This document shows positions 3,920 to 30,698 of a stretch of 30,700 nt of DNA, piece by piece. The stretch comes from an uncultured Pseudomonadales bacterium (GTDB lineage Bacteria; Patescibacteriota; Microgenomatia; UBA1400; MFAQ01): assembly GCA_964618885.1 (NCBI GenBank), contig CAZUFH010000002.1, positions 1-30,700 of the forward strand, read 5' to 3'. Position numbers and translations under genes: made by a program. The notes beneath the pieces were generated by a model. That model was not told the DNA's origin and made no database searches. It saw only the letters and a program-made list of their open reading frames with translations. Position 1 is the first letter of the stretch. Each line of letters begins with the position of its first letter.

Positions 3920-5179
3920 ATGCTAGACATCAACTACATCCGCGACAACCAAGAAAGTCTCAAGGCTGCGATCTCCAACAAGCAGTTCGATCCTGCCATG
4001 GTGGACAAACTTATCAAGATCGACGATGAGAGGCGAGGCCTAATCAAAGAAGTTGAAAATCTAAGACATCTGGCAAACGAAAATATTGCCGATCTCAAAG
4101 GCAAGCCGAGCGAAGAGCAAATTTCTACGGGCAGGGAAATCAAACAAAAACTACAGGAAGTAGAGCCAAGGCTAGCCGAAACCGAAAAGCAGTTTACTGA
4201 ACTAATGTATCAGATCCCCAATCCCTCGGCCGATGATGTCCCGGTGGGTAATGACGAGTCCGGTAATGTCGAGGTAAAAAAATGGGGAGATCTTCCAAAA
4301 TTCGATTTTCCGGTTCTCCCTCACGAAGATATAGCCGAAAATCTAGATTTACTGGACAACAAGCGGGCTGTCCGTATTGCCGGTAGCCGGGCTTTCTTTA
4401 CCAAGAATGATTTGGTTCTCTTGGAATACGCTCTCTTAATGTACGCGCTAAAAATGATGATCGGCGAAGGCTATACCCCCATGACCGTGCCTTGGATGGT
4501 CAATGATGAAGCCATGTGGGGTACCGGCTACTTTCCTTGGGGCCAAGAAGACCACTACAAGACTCAGGATGGCCAAAGTCTCATCGGCACTGCCGAAGTC
4601 TCACTCACCGCTTTCCACAAAGATGAAGTCCTAAACGAAAAAGATTTACCCGTCAGGATGGTGGGTATCTCTCCTTGCTATCGTCGGGAAGTGGGTTCCT
4701 ACGGCAAAGATACCAAGGGTATCTTTAGGGTCCACCAATTTAACAAGGTGGAGCAAGTGGTTTATACCGTAGCCGATGAAACTGAAACCCGTAAGATGCA
4801 TGACCAGATGCTTGGCCACACCGAAAAACTTTTACAAGACTTGAAACTTCCGTATCATATCCTTCTCATGTGTACAGGAGACATGGGTGCTGGTCAGCGC
4901 CGCAAGTACGACGTCGAAGTTTGGTTCCCCAGTCAAAATGCTTACCGCGAAACTCACTCCGACTCCTACTTCAACGACTTCCAAAGTCGTCGCCTGAACA
5001 TTCGTTACAAGGCGTCCGACGGCTCTCTCAAATATGTTTATACTCTAAACAACACTGTCGTGGCGACACCTCGGATACTGGGGGCAATACTTGAGAACTA
5101 TCAGCAATCAGACGGTTCTGTGAAGGTCCCGGAAATACTGATCCCTTTTGTCGGCAAAAGCATCATCCGGCGTGTCTAA
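3920..5179 (+). CDS. serS: serine--tRNA ligase
   Basis: MLDINYIR N-terminus with coiled-coil arm, GTAEV, CYRREVGSYGKDTKGIFRVHQFNKVE (motif 2), TLNNT. Confidence 0.98.
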   Translation: MLDINYIRDNQESLKAAISNKQFDPAMVDKLIKIDDERRGLIKEVENLRHLANENIADLKGKPSEEQISTGREIKQKLQEVEPRLAETEKQFTELMYQIPNPSADDVPVGNDESGNVEVKKWGDLPKFDFPVLPHEDIAENLDLLDNKRAVRIAGSRAFFTKNDLVLLEYALLMYALKMMIGEGYTPMTVPWMVNDEAMWGTGYFPWGQEDHYKTQDGQSLIGTAEVSLTAFHKDEVLNEKDLPVRMVGISPCYRREVGSYGKDTKGIFRVHQFNKVEQVVYTVADETETRKMHDQMLGHTEKLLQDLKLPYHILLMCTGDMGAGQRRKYDVEVWFPSQNAYRETHSDSYFNDFQSRRLNIRYKASDGSLKYVYTLNNTVVATPRILGAILENYQQSDGSVKVPEILIPFVGKSIIRRV

Positions 5180-6221
5180 AAAGCTTTTGTTCGCCCTCTT
5201 TATTTTGCTGGTCCTCGTGGGCTCTGGAGTCTATTTTTTTTCCTCCCAAAAAAACGGTTTACTGCTATCTCCCTTACTCTTAGGGCGGGATCAGAGCGAA
5301 AAAATTTCCAAAAAAATCTCCGATCTTCACTTGGACTTCACCAAGTCCAAAGAACTAGAGTCGCTCGCCTCTGTTCCTCGGTATCTAGTCTACAACTCCG
5401 ATAGTGGAGTGGTCTACTATAGTAAAGGTAGCTCTCTCAGAGCTTCGCCGGCTTCGTTTACCAAGCTCTTGTCTTCCCAGGTCGTCATAGATTTTATTCC
5501 CCTAGGCACTCAGATTACCGCCTCGGAAAATTCGATCAACAAGGTCCCCACTATTTTAGGTTTAAAAGCCGGAGAAATTTTTTCGGCCGAAGACCTTCTC
5601 CGGGGAGCCATCGCCACCAGTGGCAATGACGCCGCCCAAGCTCTGGCGGACGGAGCCACCTTGGCAGTGGATATTTACCCTTCGGAATTTATCTACTATA
5701 TGAATCAAAAAGCCGGTTTGTTGGGCATGTCCCACTCTCATTTTGTCAATCCAGATGGCTTAGATGATCAAAATCAGTACTCAACTTTGGAAGATGTCGC
5801 TCGACTTGTAAATAATGTACAAAAAAATTACCCGGAAATTCTGAAGGCTGCCCAGTCAGACAATCAGGACATTGCCACCTCCTCCTCCCACGGGTTCTAT
5901 TATTTACCAAACTGGAATGGTCTTCTCGGGGTCTATCCTGGTGTATCAGGTCTTAAGATTGCCTACACCGAAGAGGCCGGCTACTCCACCATTGTGACCG
6001 CTTCTCGAGAAAATATGTCGGTGGTTGCTATTGTTTCCGGCACCGATTCGTATCTTGAGCGAGATCGCGCTGCCGCCGACTTACTCGATGCCGCTTTTAT
6101 GACGAAGGGCGTGTTACCTGTGAGAGTGACCACCAATATGTTAAATCGCCGCTACAAAGCCTGGGGCGACTTGGCTCGGAAAATTAGAGCCGAGCTATCC
6201 TTAAAAGAAAGTAATAACTAA
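5172..6221 (+). CDS. membrane-anchored D-alanyl-D-alanine carboxypeptidase (peptidase S11 family)
   Basis: N-terminal TM, PASFTK (SxxK), SGNDAA (SxN), HFVNPDGL; third motif reads KIA instead of KTG. GTG 5172 overlapping the serS stop is the preferred start. Confidence 0.88.
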   Translation: MSKKLLFALFILLVLVGSGVYFFSSQKNGLLLSPLLLGRDQSEKISKKISDLHLDFTKSKELESLASVPRYLVYNSDSGVVYYSKGSSLRASPASFTKLLSSQVVIDFIPLGTQITASENSINKVPTILGLKAGEIFSAEDLLRGAIATSGNDAAQALADGATLAVDIYPSEFIYYMNQKAGLLGMSHSHFVNPDGLDDQNQYSTLEDVARLVNNVQKNYPEILKAAQSDNQDIATSSSHGFYYLPNWNGLLGVYPGVSGLKIAYTEEAGYSTIVTASRENMSVVAIVSGTDSYLERDRAAADLLDAAFMTKGVLPVRVTTNMLNRRYKAWGDLARKIRAELSLKESNN

Positions 6222-6222
6222 T

Positions 6223-6849
6223 ATGTCTCTAAGACACCTTTTTTTTCCTCAAATCATTAAGTTTCCCGACACTCCTTACAATCGTCATATCACTCTGCAC
6301 CAATATCTTCTCCAGCCTACTTTAATGGTCGATGGTCTAATCGAGTCCGGCGATATTTTGACCCATATTTGGAAAACGGGCCTCAAAAAATTAATTCCTC
6401 GCACTTTTGTCCCTCAAAATATTCTACTCCTCGGACTAGGGGGAGGGTCAAATACTTTACTGGTCCGCCGGCGATATCCCAAAGCCAAAATTACCGCTGT
6501 CGAGATAGATCCGCTCATGGCCAGTATCGGTAAAAAATACTTTGGGCTCAATAAAGTCAAAAATTTGGAAATAGTTATTGCGGACGCTCTCCCTTTTGCC
6601 CTTAATCTGACATCTGAGAAATATGATCTGATACTGGTTGACTGTTTTGAAGGCAAGTACATCCCCAAGAAGTTGGAAAATCTCGACTTTATCCAGGCTC
6701 TCAAAGATCATGCGCGCTACGTCTTGATCAATCGGATTTTTTGGTATGACTATCACCAGCCCACACTAGAGTTTATGCGGTCTCTCAGTACCCGCTTTTT
6801 CTATGTCACCGCCCACACTCGCTCCAACCTCCTCATTTCTCTCGTCTAA
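6223..6849 (+). CDS. spermidine-synthase-like class I SAM-dependent methyltransferase
   Basis: ILLLGLGGGS motif I, VEIDP, IADA, YDLILVD. Confidence 0.8.
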   Translation: MSLRHLFFPQIIKFPDTPYNRHITLHQYLLQPTLMVDGLIESGDILTHIWKTGLKKLIPRTFVPQNILLLGLGGGSNTLLVRRRYPKAKITAVEIDPLMASIGKKYFGLNKVKNLEIVIADALPFALNLTSEKYDLILVDCFEGKYIPKKLENLDFIQALKDHARYVLINRIFWYDYHQPTLEFMRSLSTRFFYVTAHTRSNLLISLV

Positions 6850-6853
6850 TTTC

Positions 6854-6882
6854 CGTCATCGCGAGTGCAGCGTGGCGATCCA
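6854..6882. repeat. CGTC-tagged short palindromic repeat (intergenic)
   Basis: CGTCATCGC-GAGTGCAGCGTG-GCGATCCA with an ATCGC/GCGAT stem; similar to the copy at 21931-21964. Confidence 0.6.
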
Positions 6883-6908
6883 AGCATTTAGCTATATAAT
6901 CAATTGAC

Positions 6909-9557
6909 ATGTTTTCTTTTTTAGACCCCATCCTTAATCCCAACAAAATCGAAGTTGAAAAGCTGAAGAAAATCGTGGCCTCCATCAACTCTCTGGAAGA
7001 CTCGGTGAAAGATATGAAAGACGACGAGTTCAAGCCGGAAATCGCTCAAATAAAAGAAGAGCTCAAAGGCGAGAAAACTCTGGACGATGTTCTGCCTCAA
7101 GTTTTTGCTCTGACTCGAGAGGCTGCCGCTAGGACCTTGGGTTTGAGACCTTTTGATGTTCAGCTCATGGCCGCCATCACTTTTCATCAGGGAAAAATCG
7201 CCGAACAAAAAACCGGTGAAGGTAAAACTCTCTCCGCCGTTCCTGCTATGGTGCTCAATGCGCTCACCGGCGAAGGGGCTCACCTAGTGACAGTAAACGA
7301 CTATCTGGCCCGACGTCATGCTGGCTGGATGGGTCAGGTTTATCACTTTTTAGGTCTTTCAGTTGGCTGTATCTTTTCCGGCCAAGGGGACCTACCCGCT
7401 GCCATTTATGATCCAGATTTTACCGATTCGAGTCACCCGGACATCCACCTCCAGCACATGCGACCAGCCACGAGGTCCGAAGCTTATCGCTGTGATATTA
7501 CCTACGGCACCAACAATGAATTTGGGTTTGATTATTTAAGAGACAATATGGCCAAGTCTCCGGAGAATCTATCTCAGCGCCCGCACCACTTTGCCATCGT
7601 TGATGAAGTAGACTCTATCCTGATAGATGAAGCTAGAACTCCCCTGATTATTTCTGCACCGGACTCGGAAGTTACCGACCAATATTTTCGTTTTGCGGGT
7701 CTCATCCAAGCCCTGTCTGCCGATACGGACTTTGAAGTAGATGAAAAACAGCGGACCGCCAATCTGACAGACCATGGCTTGCGCAAGCTGGAAAAAACTT
7801 TGAACGTCGAAAATCTATATCAGCAAGACTACCAAACTCTCCATCACTTGGAACAAGCTCTCAAGGCTCAAACTCTCTTCATGAAAGACAGAGACTACAT
7901 AGTGAAAGATGACGAAGTCATTATCGTAGACGATCATACGGGGCGGCTTATGTTTGGCCGTCGTTACTCGGATGGACTGCATCAGGCTATCGAGGCCAAG
8001 GAAGGTGTCAAAATACAGCAGGAGTCCAGAACCTTGGCCACTATCTCACTGCAAAACTACTTCCGTCTTTACAAAAAATTATCCGGCATGACCGGAACCG
8101 CCCATACGGAGGCAGAAGAGTTCAAAAAAATCTACAATCTGGATGTCATTATTATCCCTACAAATAGGCCTAATATTCGCGAAGATTATTCTGATATTGT
8201 CTACAAGACTCAGGGAGCCAAGTACACCGCCATTATGAGTGAGGTCCAGGAACTTCACGCCAAAGGTCAGCCCATTCTTATCGGTACCAAGTCCATCGAA
8301 CAAAACGACATCGTGGGGCAGTATCTCAAGAAAAAAAGAATTCCTCACCAAGTCTTAAATGCCAAAAATCATGAAAATGAGGCCATGATTATTTCCGAAG
8401 CCGGACGTCTCGGAGCTGTAACGGTGGCCACCAATATCGCCGGCCGAGGTGTCGACATCGTCTTGGGGGGAGATCCAAATGGAAGAGACTTGAAGGAGTG
8501 GGAAGAAGAGGCTGAAAAAGTCAAACAAGCCGGCGGACTCCATATCATCGGTGCTGTCCGACACGAGTCTCGGCGTATAGACAATCAACTTCGTGGGCGT
8601 TCCGGTCGTCAAGGAGATCCCGGCTCTTCCCGTTTTTATATTTCTCTCGAGGACGACATTATGCGCATCTTTGGCGGTGACCAAGTCAGCCGCCTCATGG
8701 ACTTCCTGAAGGTCCCGGACGATCAGCCCCTCGAAGCCGGCATGGTCGCCAAAGCTATCGAAACGGCTCAGTCCAAGGTCGAGTCCTTTTATTTTGATCA
8801 GCGGAAGCACCTGGTAGACTACGACGATGTGATGAATAGACAGCGTCAGATATTCTACGCCAGGCGCCGTAATATTCTGACCGGGGATGAAAAAATTTGT
8901 TCCCTCCAAGTAGATCAAGCCCTAGAAAAAGAAGTCAATTATCTGGCCAGTGTCTATTCTGCCTCGGGTATCAACAAAACCGAAGCCGATCAAATAGTGA
9001 AAGACTTCCAAAGTATTCTCCCGCTCGACCCTGCCTCGGCCAATTCAGTGGAAAAAAGTTTACCTGGCCGCACCGATGAGGAAGTCAAAGAAATGCTCAG
9101 TAAAATAATTTTTCAGGCCAGAACTTCTCAGAAACAGCACTTTGGCGATGATGTCGTTACCCAAGTCGAGAGATTCGTCGCTCTCGATAGTTATGATGAG
9201 CTCTGGATGAATCACCTGGATGCGATCGACAATCTGCGCGATGGTATTGGTCTTCGAGGTTACGCCCAGAAAGACCCCTTGGTCGAGTACAAGCAAGAGT
9301 CCTTCTCCATGTTTGAGAGTCTCCTGTCCCGCATCGACTCCACCATTGCCCATCGCATCTTCCGGGTCCAGGTGAATATTCCTCAGCCGGTCCAGCGACG
9401 CACCATCGAAACCTCTTCTGACCCTTCTTCATCTGTCATTCCGGGCTCGACCCGGAATCCATCCCAAGTTGGTACTGCCAAAATCGGCCGCAACGACCCT
9501 TGCTGGTGTGGGAGCGGCAAAAAGTGGAAAGCGTGCCACTACCCCAACTTAGGTTAA
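6909..9557 (+). CDS. secA: preprotein translocase subunit SecA
   Basis: KTGEGKT, VTVNDYLA, DEVDSILIDEARTPLIIS, ATNIAGRGVDI, RIDNQLRGRSGRQGDPG and C-terminal SEC-C GRNDPCWCGSGKKWKACH. Confidence 0.98.
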   Translation: MFSFLDPILNPNKIEVEKLKKIVASINSLEDSVKDMKDDEFKPEIAQIKEELKGEKTLDDVLPQVFALTREAAARTLGLRPFDVQLMAAITFHQGKIAEQKTGEGKTLSAVPAMVLNALTGEGAHLVTVNDYLARRHAGWMGQVYHFLGLSVGCIFSGQGDLPAAIYDPDFTDSSHPDIHLQHMRPATRSEAYRCDITYGTNNEFGFDYLRDNMAKSPENLSQRPHHFAIVDEVDSILIDEARTPLIISAPDSEVTDQYFRFAGLIQALSADTDFEVDEKQRTANLTDHGLRKLEKTLNVENLYQQDYQTLHHLEQALKAQTLFMKDRDYIVKDDEVIIVDDHTGRLMFGRRYSDGLHQAIEAKEGVKIQQESRTLATISLQNYFRLYKKLSGMTGTAHTEAEEFKKIYNLDVIIIPTNRPNIREDYSDIVYKTQGAKYTAIMSEVQELHAKGQPILIGTKSIEQNDIVGQYLKKKRIPHQVLNAKNHENEAMIISEAGRLGAVTVATNIAGRGVDIVLGGDPNGRDLKEWEEEAEKVKQAGGLHIIGAVRHESRRIDNQLRGRSGRQGDPGSSRFYISLEDDIMRIFGGDQVSRLMDFLKVPDDQPLEAGMVAKAIETAQSKVESFYFDQRKHLVDYDDVMNRQRQIFYARRRNILTGDEKICSLQVDQALEKEVNYLASVYSASGINKTEADQIVKDFQSILPLDPASANSVEKSLPGRTDEEVKEMLSKIIFQARTSQKQHFGDDVVTQVERFVALDSYDELWMNHLDAIDNLRDGIGLRGYAQKDPLVEYKQESFSMFESLLSRIDSTIAHRIFRVQVNIPQPVQRRTIETSSDPSSSVIPGSTRNPSQVGTAKIGRNDPCWCGSGKKWKACHYPNLG
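9435..9461. repeat. palindromic repeat inserted in frame in the secA C-terminal linker
   Basis: GTC-ATTCCGGG-CTCGA-CCCGGAAT-CCA, perfect 8-bp stem, encodes VIPGSTRNP. Confidence 0.75.
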
Positions 9558-24030: not shown

Positions 24031-24119
24031 CACGAATATACCTTACTTATTGGGCAAAGACACCTTCTTCCTCCACGTCAACTACTATTAAATTTATCGT
24101 CCCTCCACCAAAATTTTCC

Positions 24120-24150
24120 AAAAAATAACCCTGTCTTTTGACGGGGCTAT
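24120..24150 (-). terminator. hairpin with A-tract; terminator for a minus-strand transcript
   Basis: ATAACCCTGTC-TTTT-GACGGGGCTAT (10 of 11 pairs including G-U) preceded by AAAAAA. Confidence 0.55.
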
Positions 24151-24265
24151 AGCTAACTTAAGAAGTGAGCTCTCCAGTGGAGGGAACCTTTCTCAGATTG
24201 CGTTTTACTCTGAAAACGGGTACTCCCGCTCTCGATTACTCGATGGCTTTTTGTGTGCTTGTCTC

Positions 24266-24306: not shown

Positions 24307-24660
24307 TTGTCTCAATGCTGCGGAAAAATTCCGACTATTGATGATGTAGATAGGATCATAATTTCCGTTTTTCTAGGTCTGCTTGACCAGGTGGTATCAG
24401 AGCCGGATCTTTCAATTAGTGACAGCACGGATCCCTTCAAAGATCCAATTCAGACTATTAAAAATAGTCATGAATGGATAACTACAAAGGGAAATCTGAT
24501 CAAGGTGTTCGAGAGTGCCAACGGGCAAATTAATTACGAAATTTTTAGCGGCCCGGACAGAGGGGTACATCGGTTTATCGATCCAAATACCGGAAGAGAG
24601 GGTCAGACAGGAGTAGAGAATCCGAGAACCGGTGAGCGGCGCCACGAAAGTAAAAAGTAA
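24307..24660 (+). CDS. small CC-KIPT-leader protein 1 (putative toxin/effector)
   Basis: TTG start 7 nt after AGGAGG; MSQCCGKIPTIDDV leader; beta-rich His-containing C-terminus. Confidence 0.7.
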   Translation: MSQCCGKIPTIDDVDRIIISVFLGLLDQVVSEPDLSISDSTDPFKDPIQTIKNSHEWITTKGNLIKVFESANGQINYEIFSGPDRGVHRFIDPNTGREGQTGVENPRTGERRHESKK

Positions 24661-24702
24661 GTTCTGGGTGTTAAAATTAATCATATTTTAACACCCATTT
24701 TT

Positions 24703-25140
24703 ATGTCATTTCCAATTCCAAAAATAATTCCAATCAAATGTGATTTAGACAATTCCGAATATGTCATGATGATTCGTTATTTGTTGGACTTTATAAATTC
24801 TGAGTTAGAAAAAATCGATTCAATAAATACAATCTCTGTGGATCAGATAAATGAAGCCGGTAGTGCTTGTCAAACAATTTTACTTTCAAAATTCGACAAA
24901 GAGTGTGTTTTTTTGGATTCTGACAAATATTCCGAGAAATTTATCGGAACATATGCTCAGGAAACTTCAGACCTATTCAAGACCTTACAAGACATCTGTC
25001 AACTTTCATGGAGCTTTGATGCTTATCCGACCTTGGAACTTATCGATTTTGGAGTGAGGCAAGATGATGCTCAAAACTTCTACTCTTATCTAAAGTATCA
25101 GTCTGGAATTTTGTCCAATATTCTCAATCAAATATCCTAA
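24703..25140 (+). CDS. hypothetical acidic helical protein (putative immunity partner of 24307-24660)
   Basis: 145-aa ATG ORF immediately downstream and before a terminator. Confidence 0.7.
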   Translation: MSFPIPKIIPIKCDLDNSEYVMMIRYLLDFINSELEKIDSINTISVDQINEAGSACQTILLSKFDKECVFLDSDKYSEKFIGTYAQETSDLFKTLQDICQLSWSFDAYPTLELIDFGVRQDDAQNFYSYLKYQSGILSNILNQIS

Positions 25141-25148
25141 TTTTTCCC

Positions 25149-25179
25149 AAAAAATAGCCACCCCAGGGGGTGGCTTTTT
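25149..25179. terminator. bidirectional intrinsic terminator
   Basis: AGCCACCC-CAGG-GGGTGGCT perfect 8-bp stem (25156-25175), flanked by an A6 tract on the left and a T tract on the right. Confidence 0.8.
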
Positions 25180-25426
25180 CGTTCTACCTCTAGAAGTAGA
25201 ACTCGAGCTATGCTCGGGCTCGGTGTAGTAACGAGCACTAGTTGCTAATATGCAGCCCCTCAGGAGGGTTAACTTTTTCTCGTTTCCCGGCACACTTCTT
25301 GGCCTGGAGAAAAAGCGCATACTGCAACCCAAAGGCAAATTTTAAAGTGAGAGTTGATTTGGTTTTCGGCAGACTTGCCGAGCCTCTTCACCGATAAAAT
25401 CTCTCACTCCCTACCCGCCCTTAACT
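25150..25426 (-). ncRNA. candidate ~275-nt structured non-coding RNA
   Basis: Consensus promoter at one end, intrinsic terminator at the other, six or more hairpins between, no convincing ORF; ends estimated. Confidence 0.6.
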
Positions 25427-25432
25427 ATGAGT

Positions 25433-25461
25433 ATTATAAGCCATAAGCCCACTCGTGTCAA
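25433..25461 (-). promoter_or_regulatory. perfect consensus sigma70 promoter overlapping the helicase stop codon
   Basis: Minus strand TTGACA (25461-25456), CGAGTGGGCTTATGGCT (17 nt), TATAAT (25438-25433). Confidence 0.85.
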
Positions 25462-28043
25462 GACCTTTGAATCACCGATTTTAGCCTCAGGCCTATCTTT
25501 ATCTTGCCTTGGTCCTCCCTAAGGCTCAGGATCCAAACCTCAACTGTGTCCCCTACACTGAGCAGATCGCTGACTTTCTTCACGTTTCTTCCCATATTGG
25601 TGATATGAATCAGACCCGTTCCTCCCCGAGGAAGCTTTACAAAGGCGCCAAAATCGGCAAGAGAGGCCACTTTTGCCTCCAAAACTTGTCCGACGGAATA
25701 TGCTTTGATCGTTTTTGCTCTTTCCTCGCTCTCAAGCAGTTCGATTGCGTCTTCCAGCGAGATTTGGGAGTTTGCAAATAGACGAGCCTTGATATCATCA
25801 TCAGCTTCGTTAGGGTCAATGTCCATCAGATCTCTGGCAAGAGAAAATAGTGTTTTGGTGTTATCTAGGTTTTCATCCACTACTTTTTTCATTTTTTCCG
25901 GAATCTTCAATTGATATGTGGCACTTGCACCGACGGCAGTTTGAAGATTGGTCTTGTAGGCATACACTGCTTCCGGAACCACTCCGAACGGCACACAATA
26001 AGCCAGGATCACCCGAGTTCTATTCACCAATTTAAAATTGATTTCGCGAGTGTTCCTATCATGTTTGTGACCGTTTAAGAGCCGCAGAATCTGAGATCGT
26101 TCCGTTTCAATGTCCTTGAAGATTTCATGATTTATGTAGAATTCTTTGGCCCACTTCTCACCACGCTCGGACCATAAGCTGTAAAGCTTGAGGATAAACT
26201 CCACATCATCCTTACAGTTTTTCCACAAAATCTGATGGGCGGTATTGGCTTTTTGTTGCTCCTTTTTGTCCCACTCATCATTTCTTGCCAAGAGACGCTT
26301 ATGTCCTCCGTTTTTTATTACCGGCAACAATGTCGCTACTTCCACAGCGCAGCCAAATCTGTCCGACATAACAATTAGATCTGTGAGTGCGGCAGTGTAG
26401 GCAAATTCCCTCAGTATAGAGCCGTATTCGGTAAGCATGTCGTCTTCGTCAATAGCTCCGCTCTTGTGGAGTGAGGCCATTGACCTGGTCAGCTCCGTGC
26501 TATCGGGTCCATCGATCCACCCATTATCAATGTCATCCACTCCGAGTTTCTTCAGGAGAAGGATAATATCTTCCATTGATGATCGCTGTATCGCGGGGAT
26601 GGGATAGTCCCGCATGGATTTAAACTGCGCTTCGGTATAAAGGCAGTACACTTCGCCAGGAGCTGTCCTTCCTGAGCGGCCCCAGCGTTGTTTTGCATTT
26701 GCCTGACTAATTAGGGTGAGTCCGACTTTTGTTTCCAAGGTGTCTGACTTCCAGTTCGCCTGGTTTTCTACACCGCTTTCCACTACATATACAATCCCGT
26801 CTACCGTCACCGAAGCTTCGGCTACGTTGGTGCTTACAATGACTCGAATTTTTCCTGACCCGGATCCCTTTAGGGCTAGGTCCTTCTTCTTTATGTCCAG
26901 GTCGCTATATAGAGGGTATACCTCCACTTTATCTTTCAGTATCGGGCTAGAAGTAATTGCTTTATTCAGCTCAATCACTGCTTCCTCAATCGGCTTTACT
27001 CCCTGAAGAAAAGCCAGAATATTTCCTTTTGTCTTCCCCTTGATCTGTTCATTCAAAAGCCAGACTACCTTTTTCACCAGCGCCGGTACTAGCTTGTTCC
27101 GTAGCTGACGAGGATCATCATAAGGCAATTTTTCTTCTTCTTTGGCAAAGAATCTTTTATACTCAAATTTTCTCTTTGCCTCAAACTCAATCACTTTGGC
27201 CGTGTCCTCTCCGAAGTACTTCAAGAATGACTCTCTATTGATAGTCGCGCTTACAATAAGCACCTTGAGGTGAGGGTAAAGTGGAAGTTGATCTTTCAAG
27301 AGCCGAAGTATGATATCGATGTTTTCTGACCGCTCATGAGCTTCGTCAATCATGATTACGCCAAGGTCAGCCAGCTGGCCTTTCATAATCATGTTTATTA
27401 AACTTCCGTCAGTCGCAAGAAAAGCTGCGTTGAAGCGATCATTATTTCGATCTTTACTGTAGCGGTAGCCAATATCAAAGCCCTTACCCACCGATGACCC
27501 TAGTAATACTCCCATGTACTCTGCTATAGAAGTGGTTGCTACGATTCTTGGTTGGGTAATTAGGATCTGTCCGTCACGGATAAAGAAATCCTTGGGCACT
27601 CCTTCCGGCGGATAAATTAGCCAGTAGGGGAGCGCGGTGGATTTCCCTGAACCAGTCTCGCCAATGATAATGGCCACTTGGTGGTTTTTATCTTTTAGCC
27701 ACTTATAAACGTCCACAATCTTATCCGGGGTGGCGCCAAATTTGGAGGCATCAAAGGTTGATGGTTTTTCTACCTTCACATGCGGCCTTTGAGGATGGTA
27801 AACCATCCCCAATTCACCCGGGATCGCAATCGTCAAGTCTTCGCCTGGCAAAGTTCGCACCGAGAAATACGCGGCACCCATTGTCATTTTTTCCAAGAGA
27901 AGGGCTTTGCGACAGTCCTCACAATACTCAGGTCGGGACTGGCCGTACTCTTTCATCTTTTCATACATCATTCCGGAATAGCCAATTTCTACTGCATTAC
28001 ACCGTTTGCACATCACTTTGAACTCGGTTGTCGTTTTTGGCAT
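25458..28043 (-). CDS. DEAH/RHA-family (HrpA-like) SF2 helicase with an N-terminal Zn ribbon and a C-terminal S1 RNA-binding domain
   Basis: GETGSGKST, TQPR, TDG, IDEAHERS, SAT, STNVAEASVT, QRWGRSGR; N-terminal CKRC...PEYCEDCR; C-terminal S1 VGQVLEAKVASLADFGAFVKLPRGGTGLIHIT. ATG 28043 is preferred for AAGGAG spacing. Confidence 0.9.
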   Translation of the reverse strand: MPKTTTEFKVMCKRCNAVEIGYSGMMYEKMKEYGQSRPEYCEDCRKALLLEKMTMGAAYFSVRTLPGEDLTIAIPGELGMVYHPQRPHVKVEKPSTFDASKFGATPDKIVDVYKWLKDKNHQVAIIIGETGSGKSTALPYWLIYPPEGVPKDFFIRDGQILITQPRIVATTSIAEYMGVLLGSSVGKGFDIGYRYSKDRNNDRFNAAFLATDGSLINMIMKGQLADLGVIMIDEAHERSENIDIILRLLKDQLPLYPHLKVLIVSATINRESFLKYFGEDTAKVIEFEAKRKFEYKRFFAKEEEKLPYDDPRQLRNKLVPALVKKVVWLLNEQIKGKTKGNILAFLQGVKPIEEAVIELNKAITSSPILKDKVEVYPLYSDLDIKKKDLALKGSGSGKIRVIVSTNVAEASVTVDGIVYVVESGVENQANWKSDTLETKVGLTLISQANAKQRWGRSGRTAPGEVYCLYTEAQFKSMRDYPIPAIQRSSMEDIILLLKKLGVDDIDNGWIDGPDSTELTRSMASLHKSGAIDEDDMLTEYGSILREFAYTAALTDLIVMSDRFGCAVEVATLLPVIKNGGHKRLLARNDEWDKKEQQKANTAHQILWKNCKDDVEFILKLYSLWSERGEKWAKEFYINHEIFKDIETERSQILRLLNGHKHDRNTREINFKLVNRTRVILAYCVPFGVVPEAVYAYKTNLQTAVGASATYQLKIPEKMKKVVDENLDNTKTLFSLARDLMDIDPNEADDDIKARLFANSQISLEDAIELLESEERAKTIKAYSVGQVLEAKVASLADFGAFVKLPRGGTGLIHITNMGRNVKKVSDLLSVGDTVEVWILSLREDQGKIKIGLRLKSVIQRS

Positions 28044-28106
28044 GCGCATCTCCTTTAGTTTTCAAAGTTCACTCACGATTCTACGCTCATACTCCCAAAA
28101 GTGAAA

Positions 28107-28140
28107 TGGTACAATTTACTAAATTCGCACTTTAAGGAGG
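28107..28140 (+). promoter_or_regulatory. extended -10 promoter plus RBS of cassette 2
   Basis: TGGTACAAT (28107-28115) and AGGAGG (28135-28140); same spacing as cassette 1. Confidence 0.65.
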
Positions 28141-28145
28141 TTTTT

Positions 28146-28535
28146 GTGGCTCAGGCATGTTGCAAAATTCCCACGGTCGAAGACGTTGTGGCAATACGAG
28201 AGTCTATTCTGAGATATCAGGAAGAGCAGGCTGAAGCCGATGCTATTAGAGAATATATCAAGAAGCAGGCAGGGGAAGCTGTAAATTCCGGCAGTGCTTC
28301 TTCCGGCCAGACTATAGTATCGGATGACGGAAAGGTCAAAAACATTTCTCCGTATAATCCGGGAGACGTAATTCAAGTCGAAACCTTTAACAAAGACGGC
28401 AGTATTCACTACACCACAGTTAATACCGCCACCAATCAACGCCACTCATATACAGTCACTAGCGAAGGAAGGGTAGTAAAGGACCATTCAACAAATCAGA
28501 ACCTCTCAAAAGGGAGCAAAAATAGGCATAAGTAG
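28146..28535 (+). CDS. small CC-KIPT-leader protein 2 (putative toxin/effector)
   Basis: GTG start 5 nt after AGGAGG; MAQACCKIPTVEDV leader; His-rich beta C-terminus (IHY...RHSY...DHST). Confidence 0.72.
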   Translation: MAQACCKIPTVEDVVAIRESILRYQEEQAEADAIREYIKKQAGEAVNSGSASSGQTIVSDDGKVKNISPYNPGDVIQVETFNKDGSIHYTTVNTATNQRHSYTVTSEGRVVKDHSTNQNLSKGSKNRHK

Positions 28536-28581
28536 AGCGAGTAATCATAGACTAAGGTGTAAAATAGCCTTAGTCTTTTTT

Positions 28582-28983
28582 ATGCATAAAAATATTACAT
28601 ATCCCTCCGGGAAAAAAACTATTGAGATATCATTTGATCCAAAAGAAATTGATCAATATCTTTGTCTTTATGGTCCTGTGCAAATCACAACATCTGAGTA
28701 CGCAAAGTATATTTTTTTGTGCGCAACAGACGATTATCTAAAAAAGAAAATCGACGCGACTCTATTGTCCGGAATAGCCAATCGAATCCTCTATGTAGAT
28801 GGATTCCATAATTCTCTAGATTTTGGCAGCGACCTCAACTTCATGCTGGACGATACCGCTGAGCTTGAGTACAACCTCGCAATAAATGACCAGGAGACAG
28901 TCGAAAAATATCTGGGCGAACTTAAAGATTACTTTTCTAAGAATAAAAAGCTAATCAAACCACAAAAAACCGAGGGTGAATAA
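28582..28983 (+). CDS. hypothetical helical protein (putative immunity partner of 28146-28535)
   Basis: 133-aa ATG ORF directly downstream. Confidence 0.7.
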   Translation: MHKNITYPSGKKTIEISFDPKEIDQYLCLYGPVQITTSEYAKYIFLCATDDYLKKKIDATLLSGIANRILYVDGFHNSLDFGSDLNFMLDDTAELEYNLAINDQETVEKYLGELKDYFSKNKKLIKPQKTEGE

Positions 28984-29004: not shown

Positions 29005-30153
29005 TTAGATCCAGATCTTCCCCTTTTCATAGTGGCCAAAGAAATAGTAGGGGATTACTTCCAGGGTGGGAGCTGATTTTCCCTTTTTCAGAAGTGTTTC
29101 GGTGAGAGCCCGATAAAACCCCACCACCGCCGGCTGAAAACCGGTTTGATAATAGGCAATTCGGAATATTCCTTCTTTCCGCAGGCGGGCAAAGATTTCC
29201 TTCGCTTTCTGATATGCGATCTCATCTATTTCTCCGGCTGTTTTGCCGGTAGAAATCTCCTGGTTCCGAAAGAAGTAAATATTTATCTTCTCATCCATCT
29301 CTTGATGCCTTCCACTCATCTGACCTACATTTAAGACAGGTCCGGGCAAAACAACGGGCTGATCTATTTTGGGTAGTTTCAAGCAATGAATGGGGAATGG
29401 ACTTGCTTTTGAACCATCATCGTAAGTCACAGGCAGGTACATTGGTGTTCCTGAACCATATACAAACTCATGTAGAGTTTCTGTAATCGTGTTGTGTGGC
29501 AGGTCACTAAAGTTTACGGACGTCGGAATCTTTTTCTTCTGGTCTGCAATTACTTGATATATCTGATTTCGTAAAGTTGAAAGTGAGCTGATATCTCGAG
29601 CCGAAGTTATGTTGTCGCTCATCGGGATAGATAAAAACTTGTCTTTCAATCCCGGTTCGACCGTTATCTCACCGGCTTCTTCGCCGGTAGTCATCTCTTG
29701 TATTTCCAAAATATGACATTTTTTCTTTGCGGCCGAGCGGTAGAATTTACTCTTCTTGCCGATTTCCACCCGGCTGATTATTCCCGCTCGCATCGCCAGA
29801 TCTTCAAATAGGCCAATTTGTTTTTCTACCATCTCGGCAGGGCAAAAATTAGCCATAATTCGACCTGTCTTGTAATCATCCGGATTTTTCTTTTGCATGA
29901 GAAGCAGCAGTTCCAGATAATCCTCTCCGAGGTCAATCGACTCAAATTTTTTGGAAGAAGTCATCAAGTTACCCAGGTACTCCATACGATCACAGAGAAT
30001 CTGGTAGCGCCGTTGTTCGTCCTCCAGGTTCACCCCCTTCTTCATTCTTTCTTCTATTTTTAGGGCTCTGTTCATCAATACCCGGAGATCCAATCGTTCG
30101 AGAACACATTCTGTTTCGGGAATGGCTATCAAAATTACATGAGTGATCATCAT
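29005..30153 (-). CDS. uncharacterised 382-aa protein with a C-terminal alpha/beta domain
   Basis: Long ORF, AAGGAGG RBS (30162-30168), ATGA overlap with the upstream gene; C-terminal SGRH and YYQTGFQPAVVGFYRAL segments. Confidence 0.8.
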   Translation of the reverse strand: MMITHVILIAIPETECVLERLDLRVLMNRALKIEERMKKGVNLEDEQRRYQILCDRMEYLGNLMTSSKKFESIDLGEDYLELLLLMQKKNPDDYKTGRIMANFCPAEMVEKQIGLFEDLAMRAGIISRVEIGKKSKFYRSAAKKKCHILEIQEMTTGEEAGEITVEPGLKDKFLSIPMSDNITSARDISSLSTLRNQIYQVIADQKKKIPTSVNFSDLPHNTITETLHEFVYGSGTPMYLPVTYDDGSKASPFPIHCLKLPKIDQPVVLPGPVLNVGQMSGRHQEMDEKINIYFFRNQEISTGKTAGEIDEIAYQKAKEIFARLRKEGIFRIAYYQTGFQPAVVGFYRALTETLLKKGKSAPTLEVIPYYFFGHYEKGKIWI

Positions 30154-30698
30154 TGACGTGTCCTCCTTCCGGTTTCCAGGCGTCGAATCGCTTCTTTGGT
30201 GAGACTAGCCATATTATCCGGAGATATCATTAGAAATACTCCCTCTTTTTTCAATTGACCAAGAATTTGTGATTGAGCAGTCAGGGGGACATCTTCAAAA
30301 TCCCTCGGAAGTAGATAGAAGATTATAGTTTTTGAGTCTTTTTGGTATTTGGACACCAAGCTTTTTAGGCTTGCCAAATCTTTCGGAAAATGTCTTTGGA
30401 TCTCACTGTCGGATCTGGCCCGTACCATTACTACCATTTTTTGTTCGGAAGACAAAACTTTATTTTTGTCCAGCCAGGGGACGATCAGGTCTGTTTCTGA
30501 GCTGTAAACCTTAGCAAAAAATACAGCATCAAAGCCGATGGTAATTGGAGATTCTTCATCCTCGGACTCTACGATCTGTCCGCCCTCGACGAGCTCTGTC
30601 CTCAGTAGTTTTCGGTCTAGAACCCCACCCAGAACAGAGTTACTCGCTACCACCAGGTCATTGAGATAAAGGTGTCTCTCGTCCGGTTCCGAAGTAGA
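30150..30698 (-). CDS. uncharacterised protein, 5' part outside the window
   Basis: Frame is open to the window edge (...STSEPDERHLYLNDLVVASN...); translationally coupled to the 382-aa gene. Confidence 0.75.
   Translation of the reverse strand, partial: STSEPDERHLYLNDLVVASNSVLGGVLDRKLLRTELVEGGQIVESEDEESPITIGFDAVFFAKVYSSETDLIVPWLDKNKVLSSEQKMVVMVRARSDSEIQRHFPKDLASLKSLVSKYQKDSKTIIFYLLPRDFEDVPLTAQSQILGQLKKEGVFLMISPDNMASLTKEAIRRLETGRRTRQ

Follow-up and report, generated by a model that had tools for sequence, protein, structure and literature searches.

A putative family of structured RNAs encoded directly downstream of a DEAH helicase gene in Collierbacteria

Which RNA would be made from a perfect-consensus promoter that overlaps the stop codon of a helicase gene, and does this RNA belong to the helicase? 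The question is raised by a stretch of 30,700 nucleotides (nt), here called the window, from an uncultured groundwater bacterium whose closest public relatives are metagenome-assembled genomes of Candidatus Collierbacteria (Candidate Phyla Radiation (CPR)/Patescibacteria, OP11) and whose assembly comprises ~1.07 Mb at 78% completeness. The element in question, the window RNA, lies on the minus strand between positions 25461 and 25149, where a preliminary description of the locus had placed a possibly undescribed non-coding RNA (ncRNA) linked to the adjacent S1-bearing DEAH helicase. To our knowledge, hardly any ncRNAs beyond the universal ones have been described for the uncultured CPR bacteria with their genomes of ~1 Mb, and the physiological RNA partners of bacterial DEAH/RHA helicases are mostly unknown. 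Comparison of the window with homologous loci supports the existence of an uncatalogued family of structured ncRNAs that is specifically linked to the helicase, and for which we coin the name Collierbacteria helicase-associated RNA. We consider it probable that the window RNA is the product of a separately transcribed gene of this family and that it contributes the RNA part of an accessory helicase cassette with four genes.

The helicase gene (25458-28049, minus strand) ends with a TGA codon (25460-25458) that is located inside the -35 hexamer TTGACA (25456-25461, minus strand), and the -10 hexamer TATAAT (25433-25438, minus strand) follows after a spacer of 17 nt. This is a match to the sigma-70 promoter at 12 out of 12 positions, the sole such match between 24000 and 29000, and it bears out the minus-strand promoter with an embedded helicase stop codon that had been noted before. 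From the spacing alone, transcription is predicted to start at approximately position 25426. The RNA is bounded by an intrinsic terminator (25149-25179, minus strand; AGCCACCC-CCUG-GGGUGGCU) whose GC-rich stem of 8 bp, including 6 GC pairs, and subsequent U tract occupy 25175-25149, which yields a predicted length of ~278 nt, close to the ~275 nt originally proposed for a terminator-bounded transcript. The terminator is bidirectional and also ends a convergent gene encoding a protein of 145 amino acids (aa). Between the helicase stop codon and 25149-25179 no other terminator is present; a transcript of the helicase operon must include the RNA, and the helicase mRNA can therefore end only at the terminator of the RNA.

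The window RNA folds with a minimum free energy (MFE) of -105.8 kcal/mol, compared to -82.4 +/- 5.1 kcal/mol for 200 dinucleotide shuffles (z = -4.6), none of which folds as stably. It consists of a 5' domain, a 3' domain, three private hairpins and the terminator. The 5' domain (25331-25426, minus strand) is a long irregular hairpin composed of the stems P1 (UUAAGGGCGGG/UUUGCCUUU) and P2 (AGGGAGUGAGAG/CUCUCACUUU) and the hairpin P3 (25382-25366, minus strand; CUCGGCA-AGUC-UGCCGA); it is supported by the MFE structure, by nhmmer homology and by compensatory pairs in the clade-A alignment. The 3' domain (25240-25329, minus strand), which is the conserved core of the family, forms a three-way junction in the MFE structure of this segment. 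Its outer stem (GGUUGC/GCAAC plus AGUAUGC/GCAUAUU) encloses hairpin 1 (25316-25272, minus strand; CUUUUUCUC/GAGAAAAAG with the cap CCAGGCC..GCCGGG) and hairpin 2 (25267-25256, minus strand; CCUC-CUGA-GGGG). Between the 3' domain and the terminator there are three additional short hairpins (25181-25238, minus strand; GCUCG..CGAGC, CGAGC-AUA-GCUCG and GUUCUAC..GUAGAAC), which are private to the RNA of this genome and have no counterpart in the 16 other RNAs. Most of the hairpins listed in the preliminary description were recovered in this structure, namely GTGAGAG/CTCTCAC, TCGGCA/TGCCGA, CTTTTTCTC/GAGAAAAAG, CCCT/AGGG, GCTCG/CGAGC (twice) and GTTCTAC/GTAGAAC; the pairing of GTTGC with GCAGC was not, as GTTGC pairs with GCAAC instead to form the outer stem of the 3' domain.

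An inspection of the regions downstream of homologous helicases, which had been suggested as a check, bears on the link between both genes. Helicase orthologs showing 52-81% protein identity were gathered from species-representative genomes, metagenome contigs and assemblies, and the window together with 16 others for which sequence downstream of the helicase is available make up the 17 loci compared here. Metagenomes contain several hundred orthologs of the helicase in total. A unit of promoter, structured RNA (180-300 nt) and terminator was present directly 3' of the helicase ortholog in each of the 16 other loci, and the promoter at the helicase stop codon matches the consensus at 10 to 12 of 12 positions in all 17 loci. 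It has the general form TTGAC(A/G)-16/17-TAnAAT and overlaps the helicase stop codon or is located just after it. The RNA is always encoded on the strand of the helicase and immediately 3' of it. The genes beyond the terminator, on the other hand, vary between loci (ftsX/M23 peptidase, glycosyltransferase, NUDIX and others), which indicates that the pair of helicase and RNA is conserved rather than the wider region. The primary sequence of the RNA diverges very fast. A profile search with nhmmer matched the 5' domain of the window RNA to the RNAs downstream of the helicases of genomes G003 (L014; E 8e-9) and G005 (L011; E 7e-6), and the 3' domain matches other RNAs in architecture and position while sequence homology is undetectable. 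A BLAST search of the DNA of 40 relatives with the window RNA gave no match and missed true homologs as well, this method being too insensitive for such RNAs.

Comparison of the 17 RNAs revealed a modular plan in which a 5' domain is followed by a module here termed module M, a variable hairpin, the 3' domain, extra hairpins and the terminator. The long 5' hairpin, module M, the variable hairpin and the extra hairpins are optional, and the junction of the 3' domain represents the shared core. The size of the 5' domain ranges from 14 to 99 nt. Module M has the organization UUGUGU-hairpin-AUCC-hairpin-GAGA and occurs in 12 to 13 of the 17 RNAs; among the four to five RNAs without it are those of G003 and L133, and it was also not found in the window between 25149 and 25461 with model R2, even with filters turned off. 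The 3' domain is found in all RNAs with the possible exception of L135, in which it is atypical, and the 3' domain of the window RNA and 15 others (16 in all) fold to the same three-way junction. Its closing stem is typically GUUAAC/GUUAAC and is followed by a second stem of 5-8 bp, for which nearly all genomes have a sequence of their own; the window RNA has variants of these stems, GGUUGC/GCAAC and AGUAUGC/GCAUAUU. Next comes the junction with hairpin 1, an AGGA-like purine linker and hairpin 2; in clade B, only a CC..GG pairing is left of hairpin 1.

Alignments of all RNAs or of all 3' domains calculated with MAFFT were out of register, and covariation was therefore analyzed per clade and per module. 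The alignments are small and partly fitted to models, so that the following figures are supportive and do not represent a formal R-scape result. For module M (11 sequences, Infernal alignment), 98% of the cells were paired and 8 of 11 pairs have changed on both sides, values that were reached by none of 500 shuffles, and sliding the partners against each other reduced pairing to 18-44%. In the 3' domain of clade B (6 sequences) 89.6% were paired, with a covariation score that was again reached by 0 out of 500 shuffles. RNAalifold showed compensatory changes in 21 of 48 predicted pairs for clade A and in 15 of 59 for clade B. In a partner-swap test of the inner stem of the junction, for which the 5' windows share no more than 37% identity, a mean of 6 consecutive bp was formed with the own partner compared to 3.8 +/- 1.2 bp with swapped partners. 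Together with the missing Rfam match and the own promoter and terminator at 17 loci, these compensatory changes support the initial suspicion of an undescribed structured ncRNA.

The distribution of the RNA follows that of the helicase. When the module-M model R3 was run over 44 genomes of the taxonomic family, matches were obtained in six (G021, G057, G045, G002, G006 and the host genome, G000), all of which carry a helicase ortholog; the only other matches were two marginal ones. In genus g2, R3 matched 2 of 10 genomes, exactly those two that possess the helicase ortholog. The proposed link to the adjacent S1-bearing DEAH helicase thus holds at the genomic level, the RNA being always directly 3' of the gene and module M occurring in helicase-positive genomes. 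The gene for a 382-aa protein of the helicase cassette is present in 9 of the 44 genomes, and these are the very ones that possess the helicase ortholog; of 201 genomes sampled across the order, 10 contain it. This indicates that the RNA locus is accessory and is not a divergent signal recognition particle (SRP) RNA or 6S RNA. As to the two marginal module-M matches (E ~0.005, ~20 bits; G059:C23:11257-11285 at L147 and G050:C4:44868-44918 at L148), they are located in genomes without a helicase ortholog and are probably due to chance.

The window RNA does not belong to a catalogued family. A search of the whole window against Rfam 15 (4227 models) at gathering score detected only a tRNA at 562-635, in agreement with the expected novelty, and at E<=10 the region 25050-25560 yielded only terminator look-alikes (Phe_leader with 28 bits against a cut-off of 55, and RNAI with 21 against 47). 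Nothing relevant was found at seven homologous loci at E<=1. ARAGORN predicted neither a tRNA nor a transfer-messenger RNA (tmRNA) between 24000 and 25600, and Tandem Repeats Finder reported no tandem array within 25149-25461. The models for SRP RNA (RF00169, small; RF01854, large) and 6S RNA (RF00013) matched neither the region at E<=10 nor the genome, and there was no match to SRP domain IV; the window RNA is a multi-domain molecule with a three-way junction, as opposed to the ~185-nt long hairpin with a central bubble of 6S RNA. The results of the Rfam, ARAGORN and repeat searches agree with the absence of tRNA, tmRNA, RNase P, SRP and CRISPR repeat hallmarks, which had been noted before from the sequence. 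No description of the RNA was found in Rfam 15, PMC or bioRxiv; a preprint on ncRNAs associated with nucleases and helicases (10.64898/2026.10.21.760802) deals with a different, PhoH2-linked RNA.

Several identities were considered and rejected. RNase P RNA and tmRNA are found at other loci (the tmRNA of the host genome at G000:C37:4884-5280, RNase P RNA in G002, G005, G003 and G013), and ARAGORN found nothing at the locus itself. A retron msr/msd, a CRISPR or tracrRNA and an omega RNA were dismissed because the neighboring genes include no reverse transcriptase, Cas, TnpB or IscB gene according to Pfam, NCBIfam and PADLOC, and because repeats are lacking. As a separate observation, the Rfam models for small and large SRP RNA and for 6S RNA detected nothing in G000 or in four relatives, two of them single-contig genomes; the observation concerns G000, G002, G003, G005, G006 and G013, and both RNase P RNA and tmRNA could be identified in this Collierbacteria family. 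Either the lineage lacks an SRP RNA or its SRP RNA is very divergent.

The RNA was found only beside the helicase cassette and is thus probably the RNA component of this cassette. The best reading of the comparative data is that it serves as a dedicated partner of an unnamed conflict cassette composed of the helicase and proteins with a toxin-like leader. From the near-consensus promoter in the end of the helicase gene, the RNA could be transcribed separately from the operon and presumably reaches a higher level than the operon mRNA, which must itself also run through the RNA to the common terminator. The conserved three-way junction at the 3' end may represent a platform for cassette proteins, with the invariant single-stranded AGGA-like purine linker and the GUUAAC-type closing stem as likely points of contact and the S1 domain or domains and the helicase as first candidate binders, while the 5' hairpin, module M and the extra hairpins might be lineage-specific decorations. 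In the preliminary description the RNA had been considered either as a partner of the helicase or as its substrate. With the terminator hairpin and a short U tail at its 3' end, the RNA would offer little for a 3'-to-5' DEAH helicase to load on; a bound cofactor or regulator is therefore likelier than a substrate. If the RNA is the ligand of the helicase, a bacterial DEAH/RHA helicase could be matched with a defined natural RNA, and a conflict system present in several phyla would become accessible to study.

There are a number of findings that weigh against an RNA component of the cassette. A core of three proteins, namely homologs of the 385-aa and 382-aa proteins and the helicase, also occurs in other phyla, where the helicase is followed by 106-137 nt with no promoter and no such RNA; the cassette can thus work without the RNA, or an RNA is encoded elsewhere in these versions. 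In addition, the sequence of the RNA evolves very fast and whole domains are gained or lost, which points to a loose constraint outside of the junction. The covariance models are too narrow for a direct search for the junction in helicase-negative genomes, as model R1, built from the clade-B 3' domain, recognized its own clade and L138 only, even when filters were switched off. Finally, no matching reads were present in three SOLiD metatranscriptomes, the only RNA data sets found for the source study besides its DNA metagenomes, although these comprise 2-3 Mb each and are too small to indicate absence of transcription. The helicases of the other phyla have a length of 1470-1590 aa and contain several S1 or KH domains, and the lack of the RNA from their cassettes suggests that it was added in the Collierbacteria-type version with a short helicase. 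The RNA is confined to loci whose helicase has lost the long S1/KH tail, which raises the question whether protein domains for RNA binding can be functionally replaced by an RNA.

A different explanation, which we regard as unlikely, is a cis-acting element of the 3' untranslated region (UTR), whose structure protects or regulates the 3' end of the helicase operon mRNA and next to which the promoter-like site is secondary. The invariable position of the RNA directly 3' of the helicase on the same strand is as expected for such an element, and so is its inclusion in the operon transcript in the absence of an earlier terminator. However, protection of a 3' end does not require 180-300 nt with a covarying three-way junction, and the cassettes outside the CPR manage with their plain tail of 106-137 nt. 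The conservation of a promoter with 10-12 of 12 consensus positions at the same place in all 17 loci also speaks against it, an argument that is limited by the coding constraint on this site, which includes the stop codon in many loci. The location of a promoter inside the end of the upstream gene is equally reminiscent of small RNAs (sRNAs) derived from 3' UTRs, and the highly variable 5' parts of the RNA in close relatives could be taken as regions that pair with mRNAs or invader nucleic acids. A role as guide or regulatory sRNA that acts by base pairing, as known from type I 3'-UTR-derived sRNAs, is nevertheless improbable: conserved helices engage the variable parts and leave little single-stranded seed, and the best complementarity in the 1.07-Mb assembly detected with blastn-short was 15 nt with an E value of 0.23, which is at chance level, although this is a weak test with an assembly that is 78% complete and with invader sequences being unknown. 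The guide function that had been proposed alongside other roles has thus gained no support.

The failure of the Rfam models to account for SRP and 6S RNA in the host and its relatives, and a length of ~270 nt resembling that of large SRP RNA, might suggest that a very divergent housekeeping RNA adjoins the helicase by chance. This is very improbable given the accessory nature of the locus (9 of 44 genomes of the family and 10 of 201 of the order), the occurrence of module M in helicase-positive genomes, for example in 2 of 10 in genus g2, the lack of any SRP domain IV or 6S-like match even at E<=10, and a sequence turnover far faster than that of SRP RNA. Least credible of all is a gene for a small protein. 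Two open reading frames (ORFs) of 21 codons (25342-25407) and 40 codons (25269-25391) do exist in the window, but the frame of the 21-codon ORF contains TAG and TAA stop codons at aligned positions in G003 and G005, no peptide is common to the 17 RNAs, two of which lack an ORF of at least 15 codons, and substitutions keep base pairs and not codons. This agrees with the earlier statement that there is no credible gene between promoter and terminator, the 21-codon ORF being present but not conserved.

Among known systems, the bacterial Y RNAs (YrlA/YrlB), which are encoded beside rsr/Ro60 and often together with rtcB/rtcA, are among those closest to the putative RNA component of the helicase cassette. 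They are likewise structured ncRNAs of 100-300 nt with their own promoter beside the gene for an RNA-binding protein, belong to a patchily distributed accessory operon for RNA handling, and evolve fast around a conserved protein-binding core. In contrast to Y RNAs, no Ro60/TROVE protein is encoded by neighboring genes, a tRNA-like module was not detected with ARAGORN, there is no match to a Y RNA in Rfam, and the candidate partner is a DEAH helicase with one or more S1 domains. Type I 3'-UTR-derived sRNAs such as DapZ and MicL in enterobacteria are transcribed from their own promoter at the end of an upstream gene and share the terminator of this gene; they are short and Hfq-dependent and recognize their targets by means of an exposed seed. 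The layout is the same here, with a promoter over the last codons or the stop codon of a coding sequence and a terminator shared with the mRNA, but the RNAs described in this study comprise 180-300 nt, are nearly completely paired and share a conserved three-way junction.

ToxI, the RNA of the type III toxin-antitoxin system ToxIN, is also located beside genes of a conflict system including nuclease-like toxins, and a constantly made RNA that restrains a toxin would fit a very strong promoter. ToxI, however, is composed of tandem repeats of ~34-36 nt, is processed by the toxin and is encoded upstream of it, whereas the window RNA contains no tandem repeats and follows the helicase rather than being adjacent to the toxin-like genes. 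For the RNA antitoxin that the preliminary description had offered as an alternative, the data thus speak neither clearly for nor clearly against, the repeats typical of ToxI being absent. OLE RNA (with OapA/B/C) and 6S RNA (with RNA polymerase) are comparable as large, ornate and lineage-restricted RNAs that presumably act as ribonucleoproteins, yet neither shows similarity at the level of sequence or model, and neither is the 3' neighbor of a helicase in a toxin cassette. With respect to the proteins only, Hachiman (the PD-(D/E)xK nuclease HamA and the superfamily 2 (SF2) helicase HamB) similarly combines a nuclease-like protein and an SF2 helicase in an accessory island; it has no ncRNA, and the helicase of the window is an HrpA-like DEAH RNA helicase with S1. 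PADLOC identified no Hachiman or other catalogued defense system among the cassette proteins and gave only weak matches to Cas3 helicase cores.

The cassette consists in relatives of four genes on one strand, which encode proteins of ~160 aa, ~385 aa and ~382 aa followed by the helicase. In the window the helicase, the last gene of the cassette, encodes 863 aa with an N-terminal zinc ribbon (CxxC...CxxC), a DEAH core similar to HrpA/HrpB (Pfam DEAD and Helicase_C) and a single C-terminal S1 domain; its NCBIfam HrpA/HrpB matches are partial and far below cut-off. Further upstream are the genes for the 382-aa protein (29005-30153, minus strand), for which a weak SAVED/CARF-like fold is predicted, and for the C-terminal part of the ~385-aa protein (30150-30698, minus strand), which is cut by the contig end. 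The ~160-aa protein starts with MSQCCGKIPT and contains a nuclease-like D...ExK motif; this first gene with its cysteine leader is found at L131 (11-487), L133 (75-563) and L135 (210-689). No match to Pfam, NCBIfam or PADLOC was obtained for the ~160-aa, ~385-aa and ~382-aa proteins, and profile hidden Markov model searches against PDB sequences were empty for both ~380-aa proteins. The 382-aa protein, modeled with AlphaFold (pLDDT 77), showed consistent weak matches to SAVED-CHAT, Cap5, Cap4 and Csm6 (E ~0.01, TM ~0.27), and the low-confidence model of the 385-aa protein (pLDDT 65) showed weak matches to restriction endonuclease-like folds.

It is conceivable, albeit speculative, that the RNA acts as the gate of a so far undescribed RNA-helicase conflict system, in which an abundant and constantly transcribed RNA occupies the DEAH/S1 helicase, maybe together with the SAVED-like protein, such that the nuclease toxins with a cysteine leader are kept silent until loss or displacement of the RNA releases them. 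Shut-off of transcription, invader RNA or RNA damage might serve as triggers for this release. The RNA would then be a guard that is read by a helicase, which would set it apart from type III antitoxins, the ncRNA of retrons and CRISPR guides; in the CPR lineage it would stand in for the long S1/KH tail with which the helicases of other phyla are equipped.

Additional observations concern the genes around the helicase and its homologs. Two-gene cassettes whose first product carries a cysteine leader are located divergently beside the helicase at 28101-28983 and 24307-25140 (both plus strand). The leader proteins have the N-terminal sequence M(S/A)QCCGKIPTxxDV in common, show unrelated C-termini and no Pfam match, and each leader gene is followed by an unrelated gene for a small protein, an arrangement resembling toxin/immunity pairs. 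The helicases fall into length classes of ~865 aa (one S1), ~950 aa (two S1), ~1200 aa and 1300-1590 aa (arrays of S1/KH, outside the CPR), and an accompanying RNA was detected for the three short classes only. The homologs of the 385-aa protein, encoded by gene 2, in other phyla are fused to immunity-like domains of the SUKH or TsiV type (L156:634-2247 and L157:175-2217). In another family of the order, L155 (G078:C13) encodes a 382-aa homolog within a fusion ORF of 845 aa (4685-7222), which adjoins genes for FtsK and RNase J; there is no helicase in the stretch examined.

A truncated second copy of the RNA is present in the window at 24112-24260 (minus strand), 0.9 kb from the window RNA. 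It contains module M (24236-24189), then AAAGG-hairpin-CACUUCUUAAGUUAGCU, in which the junction stems are represented by their 3' strands alone, and a terminator. Its module M was matched by the models R2 and R3 (R3: 35 bits, E 3e-8), and over 77 nt the copy shares 78% identity with the 3'-terminal part of the G006 RNA (E 7e-11). It adjoins M23/ftsX genes, the very site of the intact RNA in G002, G003, G005 and G006. This gene order suggests that an ancestral RNA gene was interrupted when a new 3' domain and terminator were inserted along with the leader-toxin cassette at 24307-25140.

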